Shown one piece after another: positions 24,001 through 27,000 of a stretch of DNA of 64,000 bases. The position numbers are program-made. The DNA comes from an uncultured bacterium. Its GTDB lineage: Bacteria > Patescibacteriota > Minisyncoccia > UBA6257 > 2-01-FULL-56-20. Every line of letters starts with the position of its first letter. The stretch's first letter is position 1. The stretch is taken from assembly GCA_963844965.1 (NCBI GenBank), contig CAWJQC010000008.1:1-64000 (forward strand), read 5' to 3'.

Positions 24001-27000
24001 AAGCGCCTCGCCGCAAACGCTTCAAGAGCTCGTCAGCGAAAACGGAATCAACGTCGTGGTAATTCCGAGGCACTTGAAACATAATCCGCGCCTGGCCGCG
24101 AAACTTTATGGGCTGCTTACCGCCGGCGCGGAGATCCACGACCTTACGAACTTTTACGAACTAATTCTGAGAAAAATCCCGCTCGCCGATCTTGAGGAAG
24201 CGTGGTTCCTGGAAAACCTGGCAAACCGAAAGAAATTCTACGACCAATTGAAGCGCGCGTCAGAATTTCTGGCTGCGCTCCTCATATTTATCGTCCTCTT
24301 CCCGATCGAAGCCCTCATAGCAATCATAATAAAAATCACGTCGCCCGGACCCGTGATCTACAAACAAATCCGCATTGGCGAAAACAGCCGCGACTTTACG
24401 TTCTATAAATTCCGCACTATGCCGGTGGATGCCGAAAAAGATGGCGCAAAATGGGCTCCGCCGGGAGACAAAAGAGCAACAGTGTTCGGCAGATTTCTCC
24501 GCCGGACGCATATAGACGAACTACCCCAGCTTATAAACATAATGGAAGGCAATCTTTCATTCGTGGGACCGAGACCGGAACGGCCGGAGTTTGTTAAAAT
24601 ATTGAAGGAGAAAATCCCGTACTACGAAGCAAGACTCTTGTAAAACCCGGAGTCACCGGCTGGGCGCAAATCAACCACCACAAAGACACAACTGTGGATG
24701 ACGTCAAAGAAAAATTGCAATATGACATATACTACGTAAAAAACCGCTCTTTCGTATTGGATATGGCAATAATATTAAAAACAATAAGGTCGCTGTTCGT
24801 AACGCCAAAGTAAGAGTAATCGCCAATAACGCGAATGTCGGCAAATAATGCAAATAGAAATTCGCATTATTAAAATAAATTAGCATTACTCGCGAATACT
24901 ATAATGAAAATCATCATCACGGGCGGGGCCGGATTCATCGCCTCCCACGTCGCCGACGCTTACATAAAAGCCGGCCATAAAATTGTAATCATAGACAGCC
25001 TCCTCACGGGTTTCAGAAAAAATTTGAATCCCAAAGCTAAGTTTTACAAGGCCGATATCAGAAATCTCGCCTTGATGGAAAAAATTTTCGGGCGCGAACG
25101 GCCGGAAATCGTTAACCACCACGCGGCCATCGCCGAAGTCGTGAAATCCGTGCGTAATCCGATTCCGACTTTCCAAACAAACGTTTTGGGCACCGCGAAC
25201 GTGCTTTTGTCCTTTGGCAAATACGGCCATGGCAAAAACAAAAAATTTATTTTCTCTTCCACCGGCGGCGCGATGTACGGAATGCCGAAGCATCTTCCAG
25301 CCGCAGAAACCGAAGCAACAATAACCCTTTCCCCGTATGGCCTCTCCAAGCATCTGGGAGAAGAAGTGATCAAATTCTACGCAAGGCAGTACAGCTTCAA
25401 TTATTTCATCTTCCGCTACGCGAACGTGTACGGTCCGCGCCAAAACCCGAAAGGCGAAGCGGGCGTCGTCGCAATCTTCGGCGGTCTCGTGAAAAGAGGC
25501 CTCAGGCCCACAATTTTCGGCGACGGCACTAAGGCGCGCGACTACGTATTCGTGGACGACATTGTGCACGCGAACCTACTCGCTCTCCGCCACAAAAAGA
25601 ACGAGACAGCGAATCTCGGCTGGGGGAAACTCACAACCGACCAGATGATCTTTGACACCATCGCCCGCAAAACCGGTTTCAAACAGAAACCGATATACGC
25701 GCCCTATCGCAAGGGCGAGGTCTACCGCATTTCAATTGACGCCAAAAAAGCGCGGAGGATTCTCGGCTGGAAACCGAAAACCAAATTGAACGAAGGAATA
25801 AGAAAAACTCTCGCGAGTTTATAATTGCCAATTACCGGTACCATCGCAGAGGATGTAGGACCGTTTTCGAGAGGCTGAATGATGCGACGATATGGATTCC
25901 AGCTTGCGACCGCGGATTGAAGTATAAAAAAGCGGCCCGGTATGATCGTGCCGCCCTAGGTGGATCCCTACAGAGAAGTCACTTTCTTGAGTTTAGAAAT
26001 AACTTGGCGAAGCCTTCTCGCGACTTCACCTTCCGTAGCGTCTTCGGCCATCGAACTGACCGGGGAACCGTGTTTGTATTGATATTCTGCTGCTTTCGCC
26101 TCTTTCTGAAGACCTCGGATAACGCTTTTTAGTTTCATTTCCGACTCCTTCAAACATCTAAACGCCTGCCGATATTTTACTTCCATCTTTTTGAAAAGTC
26201 AATCACCGCGGGCTAAAGCCCGCGGCTTGTGTTCGGCTCCTGTTCCCACTGGTTTCTGATATATTCTCTCATCGCTTTTTCGTTTTGACGGCCAACGGTT
26301 TCGGCAAAGTAACCATCCTGCCACAAGCTGTCTCCCCAGAGGAATTCTTCCAGCTCGGGAAATTCTTTTCTGACAGCCCTGGACGTACCGCCTTTGAGAT
26401 AAAACACCGCTTTGGCAACCGTCAGGGTAGCAGGAATTTGAAGCAATAGATGGACATGGTCGGGCATTATCTGCGCTTCATGGATGAACCATTTATTCAT
26501 CTTGGCGGCTTGAAAGAACAATGTCTTGAGTCGCCCGACCATGTCCCCTCGCAGTATCGAGCGGCGGTACTTTGGGCAGAAAACAACGTGGTACAAACAT
26601 CGCGTATAGCTGTGGTTGCTTGGCCAGAATCCAGAGGGCATTATCTTCATTATCGCACCGGCAGAAACCAGTGGGAACAGGCAAATAAGCCCTCCGCCCC
26701 TCGCTTCGCTCGGGGCTACGGGGTCGCCTTATCCTCGGCCTAAAGGCCGGGGCTTGCGGCGGAGCGGGTCAAATGATGGCATGCAGGAGCGGACGATCTT
26801 CGAATGCACTACTTAATGAACTTAAATATGCCAGAGGCGGGGCTCTGACAAACAGCACTACCCGAAGATGCGGAGCTGACATCCCAGACCGTACCCCCTC
26901 CCGTAATAGTGCTCGATCCGGAAAGTTTCATTTTTATAGGTTGGCCATATGGATAAATAGTTACAATATCCCCAGGATCAATTTTTGCTACATCGCACAG

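Follow-up and report, generated by a model that had tools for sequence, protein, structure and literature searches.

Complementary and covarying segments near both ends of a small IS200/IS605-family element from an uncultured Patescibacteriota bacterium

An IS200-group element with an internal inverted repeat

We analysed a 64,000-nucleotide (nt) stretch of DNA from an uncultured bacterium of the Patescibacteriota (assembly GCA_963844965.1, contig CAWJQC010000008.1, positions 1 to 64,000 of the forward strand), referred to here as the window. It carries a 570-base-pair (bp) mobile element with a transposase gene, tnpA, and a perfect inverted repeat whose arms lie close to the two ends of the element. 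An initial annotation had reported 18 bp of perfect repeat. The 18-mer CCTGTTCCCACTGGTTTC was found at 26239–26256 and its exact reverse complement at 26664–26681, and the repeat is in fact 20 nt long (26239–26258 and 26662–26681), with 403 nt separating the arms. Only these two matches were found in the window with up to 3 mismatches allowed, and none of 100 dinucleotide shuffles gave two matches (0/100), excluding a chance origin. The 5' arm ends 11 nt upstream of the first tnpA ATG (13 nt for the 18-mer). Translation of the open reading frame (ORF) confirmed that the other arm lies within the coding sequence and encodes RNQWEQ at the C-terminus. Both arms are internal to the end hairpins and not at the termini, in agreement with the initial view that this is no ordinary terminal inverted repeat. 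The features of the element are as follows; the minus strand is its top strand.

26198–26767, minus strand: mobile element, 570 bp, delimited by identity with the copies L081 and L082 from other samples
26768–26772, minus strand: target pentanucleotide TTGAC, the left cleavage site, preceding every clade copy with a readable left junction, whatever lies further left
26733–26752, minus strand: left subterminal hairpin CCCCGGCC-TTTA-GGCCGAGG, with CAAG (26753–26756) before it in a guide-like position, 15 nt (11 nt plus CAAG) after the left TTGAC
26696–26716, minus strand: second left-end stem-loop CCCCGA-GCGAAGC-GAGGGG, then GGAGGGC; the hairpin position is kept in relatives
26662–26681, minus strand: 5' clamp arm (armL), top strand CCTGTTCCCACTGGTTTCTG, perfect 20-nt complement of 26239–26258; paired in minimum free energy (MFE) and centroid structures of DNA and RNA folds
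26213–26650, minus strand: tnpA (Y1/HUH transposase), 145 amino acids when read from the first ATG; the second ATG, at 26641, is the probable start and gives 142
26239–26258, minus strand: 3' clamp arm (armR), top strand CAGAAACCAGTGGGAACAGG, within the TnpA C-terminal tail (residues RNQWEQ)
26206–26225, minus strand: right subterminal hairpin CCGCGGGC-TTTA-GCCCGCGG (CCGCGGGC-TAAA-GCCCGCGG on the other strand), with CAAG (26226–26229) before it
26198–26202, minus strand: right terminal TTGAC, the right cleavage site and last bases of the element, where identity with L082 stops exactly

TnpA matched Pfam PF01797 (Y1_Tnp) over its full length (E = 9e-39) and NCBIfam NF033573 transpos_IS200 with 130.8 bits (cut-off 55). 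The closest solved structures were IS608 TnpA (2a6m, E = 3.8e-21) and ISDra2 TnpA (2xm3, E = 6.9e-21). The initial assignment as IS200-like was correct. The residues H65 and H67 (H65-V-H67) and Y130, aligned to DHIH and Y127 of IS608 TnpA, are invariant in 30 homologs. About 3,800 homologs were found, the closest of them (55–67% identity) mostly from Patescibacteria. Membership of the RAYT/TIRYT group was considered and rejected: the RAYT model NF047646 REP_Tyr_transpos scored 38.6 bits, below its cut-off of 80, the hairpins are direct, their motif has no copy in the window outside the element, and the gene travels with its ends. By every testable criterion the element belongs to the IS200 group of the IS200/IS605 family.

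The reading frame ends by running through the 3' arm, the spacer and the right hairpin's 5' half. These segments specify TnpA's C-terminal tail and account for the conserved C-terminal '..QW..E...S.GL*' of the homologs. In this hairpin, the TAG stop codon takes up the final two bases of the loop and the first base of the 3' stem. The public gene call at this locus, P0001 (26213–26542), begins at Met37 and gives a protein of 109 amino acids without the first β-strand, including the conserved PKYRR; the full ORF encodes 142–145 amino acids.

The L081 and L082 copies lie on short contigs and encode an identical TnpA. Their 99.7–100% identity to the window extends over 576–579 bp only, with unrelated flanks on both sides, placing the 570-bp element in three different genomic contexts. 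Relatives span 525–587 bp from TTGAC to TTGAC, and the sister elements P0040 and P0050 occur on 13–14 contigs with several different flanks. The element is therefore recently mobile, with canonical IS200/IS605 ends; by analogy with the family, its transposition would involve a circular, single-stranded intermediate. In top-strand order, the TTGAC of the flank is followed by 11 nt, CAAG, the left hairpin, the small stem-loop, the 5' arm within the tnpA promoter and then tnpA. After the 3' arm in the last codons of tnpA come 9 nt, CAAG, the right hairpin, the three nucleotides TGA and TTGAC. A pattern search found the hairpin motif at two places only in the window, the two element ends, in direct orientation, and both hairpins form in DNA and in RNA folds. 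The initial annotation had set the 3' hairpin at 26196–26215, ten bases from its actual position. Its interval for the whole structure, 26196–26681, misses the left-end hairpin at 26733–26752, and hence the extension of the element to 26767.

Pairing between the ends of related elements

Related loci (L and P numbers) were gathered from genomes, metagenomes, viral contigs and exact-protein look-ups. About 20 relatives with TnpA identities of 50–66% carried a helix at the same position with a different sequence, of which the following are examples.

L163: 5' arm GATCCCATTGCGCT, 3' arm AGCGCAATGGGATC, 14 bp
L166: 5' arm CTCGTTCCCACTGCC, 3' arm GGCAGTGGGAACGAG, 15 bp
L176: 5' arm CCTGCGCCCACTGC, 3' arm GCAGTGGGCGCAGG, 14 bp
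L187 and L199: 5' arm TCTTGGTTCCTTTGATTTTTGAGG, 3' arm its complement, 24 bp
L190: 5' arm TCTTTCTTCTTTTG, 3' arm CAAAAGAAGAAAGA, 14 bp

Other helices reached 18 bp (L086), 17 bp (L089 and L095) and 14 bp (L093). Two arrangements were seen. In the clade of the window's element (Patescibacteria-type), the 5' arm ends 11–26 nt before the ATG and the 3' arm lies over codons 131–138, directly after the catalytic tyrosine. In a second clade (50–55% identity; L001, L003, L004, L086, L087, L089, L093, L095 and others), the 5' arm extends as far as the ATG or into it and the ORF ends before the 3' arm, which is found 1–6 nt past the stop codon and just inside the right hairpin; these arms are 13–18 bp long.

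Perfect Watson–Crick helices of at least 10 bp between the region upstream of the ATG and the region after Tyr130 were present in 19 of 27 distinct elements. This length was reached by 5 of 2700 shuffles, and by non-cognate left/right pairs only within near-identical arm families. Covariation was scored on an alignment with the 3' arm anchored on the tyrosine codon, independently of structure, and the 5' arm register fitted; this fit leans towards the structure, but the controls, slid or shuffled, were scored on that alignment too. Both sides varied in 20 of the 27 aligned pairs. The covariation score was 0.41, compared with 0.17 for shuffled pairs (0/500 as high) and 0.10–0.21 with partners slid by 1–3 columns. 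Two other measures were tried and set aside. RNAduplex energies of cognate and non-cognate pairs proved too noisy, being dominated by G+C-rich partners (e.g. L090), and the longest perfect helix was used instead. Plain MAFFT alignment of the left end and the 3' segment failed to place the 5' arms in one register, the distance between arm and ATG varying from 9 to 26 nt.

No helix of 11 bp or more was found at this position in 124 IS200-family loci with less than 45% identity (0/124), of which four reached 9–10 bp. A scan of viral contigs added 74 further control loci, with a longest helix of 8 bp, and three more clade members with weak or absent clamps. As the helix is kept in place with covarying sequence, and none so long occurs in the distant loci, the comparison indicates that pairing of the end-proximal segments is under selection. 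It likewise points to the clamp as a clade-specific innovation. The initial annotation had allowed that the repeat might reflect chance codon conservation, with no complementary partner in relatives; the relatives instead hold complementary arms of their own, with compensatory changes.

Folding of the 575-nt top strand placed the helix in a wider structure, in which it is dominant. As DNA the strand folded with −112.2 kcal/mol (z = −5.35 against shuffles), and as RNA with −224.3 kcal/mol (z = −5.28). The MFE and centroid structures, for DNA and RNA alike, contained the clamp, both end hairpins and an internal helix within the ORF:

26533–26546 and 26452–26465, minus strand: arms of a perfect 14-bp helix, ORF nt 104–117 and 185–198, in the codons for GDMVGR and MPDHVH

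L163 has a 12-bp intragenic helix at the window's position, with a compensatory A>G / T>C change. Elsewhere the partners differ. L176, L186 and L193 pair ORF nt 107–118 with 353–364 over 11–12 bp, and L001 (18 bp) and L089 (19 bp) pair codons 35–40 with the conserved DGYFAE codons (ORF nt 102–120 and 329–347). Since the intragenic partners differ between lineages, the protein sequence would appear to be shaped by nucleic-acid pairing. With these helices (11–19 bp) varying in position by lineage and the end clamp constant, general compaction of the strand fits better than one fixed riboregulator. Rfam gave no match over the whole window at gathering score, and a search around the element that admitted E values up to 5 returned just three chance hits below threshold; no tRNA was found.

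A proposed clamp in single-stranded DNA and its alternatives

The DNA and RNA folds both hold the helix, and we therefore considered where transcription of tnpA would begin. The left end has only one promoter-like site:

26649–26677, minus strand: predicted tnpA promoter TTCCCA-17-TGcGATAAT, with the −35 at 26672–26677 and a TG-extended −10 GATAAT at 26649–26654 (consensus scan 9/12 + TG); start predicted at about 26641–26642

Both the −35 and the spacer of this site fall within the 5' arm. A −10-like hexamer ending 5–9 nt (mostly 6) before the ATG was present in 20 of 24 elements (26639–26654 region in the window). None of the 24 has a Shine–Dalgarno sequence before tnpA, while host genes beside the elements do carry GGAGG. 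No promoter further upstream was predicted in the left ends of L001, L187 and L163. With only about 6 nt between the −10 box and the ATG, and no Shine–Dalgarno sequence, the tnpA mRNA is probably leaderless. A leaderless transcript would start downstream of the 5' arm, and the gene's own mRNA would therefore not contain it. The same signature suggests the second ATG (26641) as the true start in the window. The helices are almost purely Watson–Crick, with no enrichment of G.T at their ends (21 G.T, 15 A.C, 60 other; n = 96), although these mismatches are too few to decide between the strands or RNA. With the 5' arm in the −35 and spacer and a leaderless signature, a clamp forming in single-stranded DNA rather than RNA is favoured on indirect grounds.

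The substrate of TnpA is the single-stranded form of the top-strand ends, and a left and a right end must both be present in the transpososome (PMC3201880, PMC5027513). In IS608, TnpA binds both top-strand hairpins, and the cleavage sites are recognised by four bases 5' of each hairpin foot (PMC3201880). The identical CAAG in the guide position and the identical TTGAC cleavage sequence at both ends of the window's element would be consistent with this guide rule. We tentatively propose, with a little less confidence than would make it probable, that the repeat serves as the clamp by which an IS200/IS605-family element folds on itself, and that it would act in single-stranded DNA and promote synapsis of the ends. 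The top strand would be single-stranded on the lagging-strand template and later as the excised circle. In this state the arms would zip into a 20-bp helix and loop out the ~400-nt transposase gene, which the intragenic helices would compact further. This would bring the two end hairpins side by side, together with both TTGAC cleavage sites, and a single TnpA dimer could then be bound to both ends and carry out excision or re-insertion of the element.

Several points weigh against this proposal. The top strand has the sequence of the mRNA, so that neither covariation nor folding can tell DNA and RNA apart. The leaderless assignment consists of consensus matches, and a transcript initiated further upstream would carry both arms. 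In an element of only 570 nt, transposition may not be limited by how far apart the ends lie; IS608 and ISDra2 lack such a clamp and still transpose. Finally, the clamp is not indispensable, as some members of the clade (L192, L193, L186, L201, L202, L005 and L085) have a weak one or none.

The strongest alternative is the one raised by the initial annotation, in which the mRNA 5' leader pairs with its own 3' coding end. A tnpA transcript including the 5' arm would occlude its initiation region, or form a 20–24-bp double-stranded RNA cut by RNase III, and so limit transposase or silence read-through from the host. The paired strand is the sense strand, the covariation is equally compatible with RNA, and the RNA fold of the full element in the sense of the transcript holds the clamp (z = −5.28). 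In the second clade, moreover, the 5' arm reaches up to or into the start codon, and the 3' part of this arm may alternatively pair with the first codons (ATCTGGCC / GGCCAGAT) in a switch-like manner. Salmonella IS200 represses tnpA translation through an mRNA stem-loop (PMC4513863). Set against this are the position of the 5' arm in the −35 and spacer (or −10) of the sole promoter-like site and the leaderless signature. In the window's clade the arm ends 11–26 nt before the ATG and leaves the start codon uncovered. G.U pairs are not enriched, no Rfam family matched, and the intragenic helices vary in position. The covariation thus bears out the part of the initial suggestion that the arms are selected to pair; its placement in the mRNA is doubtful, as the predicted leaderless transcript lacks one arm, and we consider such control unlikely though well worth keeping in view. 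Arms that serve as recognition sites in double-stranded DNA are improbable. They would form a pair resembling terminal inverted repeats, bound by TnpA or a host protein as proposed for TIRYT, or a pair of autoregulatory operators. The 5' arm does overlap the promoter, and relatives of Y1 transposases with terminal inverted repeats are known (TIRYT, PMC6006769). However, only complementarity is kept, and the arms are wholly different at about 60% TnpA identity, which is the signature of a helix and not of a motif bound by protein. They also lie inside the hairpins and cleavage sites and not at the termini, and the RAYT/REP model failed (38.6 bits against 80).

Still less probable is that, in part of the family, the repeat copies the promoter to the 3' end, where an inward promoter would yield antisense RNA against tnpA. 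This is conceivable in the second clade only, whose arm holds an extended −10 (TGGCATAAT) and whose inverted copy bears the motif on the other strand just past the stop codon. The arm of the window's clade excludes the −10, the nearest −10-like hexamer to the window's inverted copy leaves a spacer of only 11 nt, and no plus-strand promoter was called at 26239–26270. We give almost no credence to a repeat without function, whether it arose by chance, as an assembly foldback, as the relic of an inverted partial copy or as the substrate of an invertible switch. The plus-strand copy also reads RNQWEQ in frame, as a relic might. Chance is excluded by the shuffles (0/100). Three independent assemblies have the identical sequence with an intact ORF (L200 confirms the left junction only), which also disposes of the foldback artefact that the initial annotation had considered. 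A relic of the 3' end of an inverted second copy was rejected, as similarity stops exactly at 20 nt and relatives carry different arms in the same place. The initial annotation had further suggested that the segment between the arms may be invertible. A single orientation was found in the three full-length assemblies (window, L081 and L082) and in all relatives, and there is no recombinase gene among the neighbouring ORFs. Inversion would moreover remove the last 17 codons and the stop codon, and part the gene from its −35.

Target sites, known systems and flanking sequence

All readable left junctions (11 distinct elements) have TTGAC, with flanks that are otherwise unrelated. The right end is also TTGAC in most clade copies, and is variant or missing in L081, L168, L182/L183 and L189. 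TTGAC(A) is the sigma-70 −35 consensus. Beyond the right end, a −10 hexamer lies 16–18 nt after TTGACN in 12 of 21 distinct right flanks (window, L082, L084, L163, L166, L173, L178, L188, L190, L191, L193 and L196), where 2.9 were expected and none of 2000 shuffles reached 12. A −10 at such spacing follows 8% of all TTGAC sites in the window. The combination is TTGACA-18-TACAAT in L163 (11/12 matches) and TTGACA-17-TATAAT in L188, and in the window is as follows.

26174–26202, minus strand: predicted hybrid outward promoter TTGACT-17-TAAAAT, with the −35 from the right end and the −10 from the flank (10/12 matches), before a small ORF (ATG 26138, Shine–Dalgarno GGAG)

These patterns indicate that the clade inserts 3' of TTGAC, within the −35 boxes of promoters. 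The downstream gene would keep a complete promoter because the last five bases of the element replace the displaced −35. A broader reading, which we hold more loosely than the clamp proposal, is that this lineage may have swapped part of protein-mediated synapsis for nucleic-acid self-assembly. The clamp and in-frame helices would present the hairpins and TTGAC sites, while homing to −35 boxes and repairing them with the right end would leave insertions nearly silent for the host.

The IS200/IS605 family (IS200, IS1541; models IS608 and ISDra2) is the reference for single-strand 'peel and paste' transposition and the carrier of TnpB and IscB. The element shares with it a Y1/HUH TnpA with HxH and catalytic tyrosine as the only protein, and same-strand subterminal hairpins at both ends with four conserved bases 5' of each foot and no classical terminal inverted repeats. 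Element and family alike are small, occur in multiple copies and insert 3' of a short, fixed sequence with no duplication of the target. The target sequences are TTAC in IS608 and TTGAT in ISDra2. What differs here is a covarying 13–24-bp helix joining the left end's inner side to that of the right end, together with long intragenic helices, a probably leaderless mRNA and an ORF that runs into the right hairpin. In comparison to IS608 (TTAC/TCAA with AAAG/GAAT), both cleavage sequences are TTGAC and both guide positions CAAG, and the right cleavage site is 3–5 nt from the hairpin instead of 10 nt.

Pairing near the tnpA start, the analogy drawn in the initial annotation, is shared with Salmonella IS200, where a stem-loop in the 5' untranslated region and the art200 antisense RNA keep transposase low. 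There a local hairpin in a leader of roughly 100 nt hides the ribosome-binding site, whereas here the partner is 400 nt away, a ribosome-binding site is absent and the arm is probably upstream of the transcription start. RAYT/TIRYT systems also have a Y1 transposase gene bracketed by inverted repeats. Here, by contrast, the hairpins are direct, gene and ends move together as one multi-copy element, and the arms are internal and variable in sequence. Folded single-stranded DNA is known from integron attC, CTX-phi attP, single-strand promoters and origins of plasmids and phages, and the adenovirus panhandle. These systems share intrastrand pairing with structure conserved above sequence, and the panhandle pairs the ends of a displaced strand. 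They are mostly local hairpins or termini that rebuild an origin, while an internal clamp would here juxtapose two protein-binding hairpins.

The literature searched, whose incomplete coverage leaves room for a prior description, held nothing relevant on a clamp between left and right ends, on TTGAC as a target or on IS200 in Patescibacteria. In it and in 198 distant loci we could not find an end-to-end clamp, intragenic helices, identical cleavage sequences, probable leaderless expression or TTGAC/−35 targeting, which thus appear undescribed for the family. If the proposal is correct, the clamp would add a third, DNA-encoded layer, pairing-assisted synapsis, to hairpin recognition and guide sequences. 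The transposase ORF would then be shaped by the folding needs of its own DNA, in the C-terminal tail and in codons 35–40, which lie opposite HUH or DGYF codons. The clamp could also inform the design of compact tools for single-strand DNA insertion. TTGAC targeting with a rebuilt −35 would explain persistence in the small, gene-dense genomes of Patescibacteria, and such insertions would flag promoters in organisms whose promoters are poorly known.

Some copies depart from these ends. The right ends of L081 (after GGTGAT) and L189 (after GGGGTTG) diverge 3–4 nt past the hairpin, and those of L168 (TTGAA) and L182/L183 (TTAAC) have a variant TTGAC; such ends may stem from imprecise events, from decay of the copy or from joins made during assembly. 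At the left end, the second stem-loop varies in stem sequence and length between conserved CCCGGA and GGAGGGC flanks (L163, L187, L190, L192, L196, L004 and L087), and is reduced to GCGAAGC in the window and L001. As GCGAAGC derives from these conserved flanks, it was not used as independent evidence for a DNA structure. The left flank of L167 (positions about 556–600) ends in CCGGGTGCTGTTGAC, which matches exactly the final 15 nt at the right end of the element itself. This copy appears to be inserted beside the remnant of an earlier one, in which case right ends would themselves be targets. Short-read contigs mix left and right flanks (L166/L172 and L167/L170; L169/L173; L171/L174), as is typical of repeat-collapsed assemblies, in which single junctions are reliable and pairs of left and right flanks are not.

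The empty site (...CATCATTTGAC|TTTTCAAAAAG) was not recovered through the neighbouring gene, the sole other contig having the element at the same site. This gene (26809–27300, minus strand) is a 163-amino-acid ORF with a hydrophobic N-terminus, directly upstream of the insertion and without a Pfam or NCBIfam match; the same insertion is present in one other sample (L200). Its low G+C content, from which the initial annotation had suggested a horizontally acquired patch, was confirmed (0.35–0.42 compared with about 0.50), and the gene lies outside the element.

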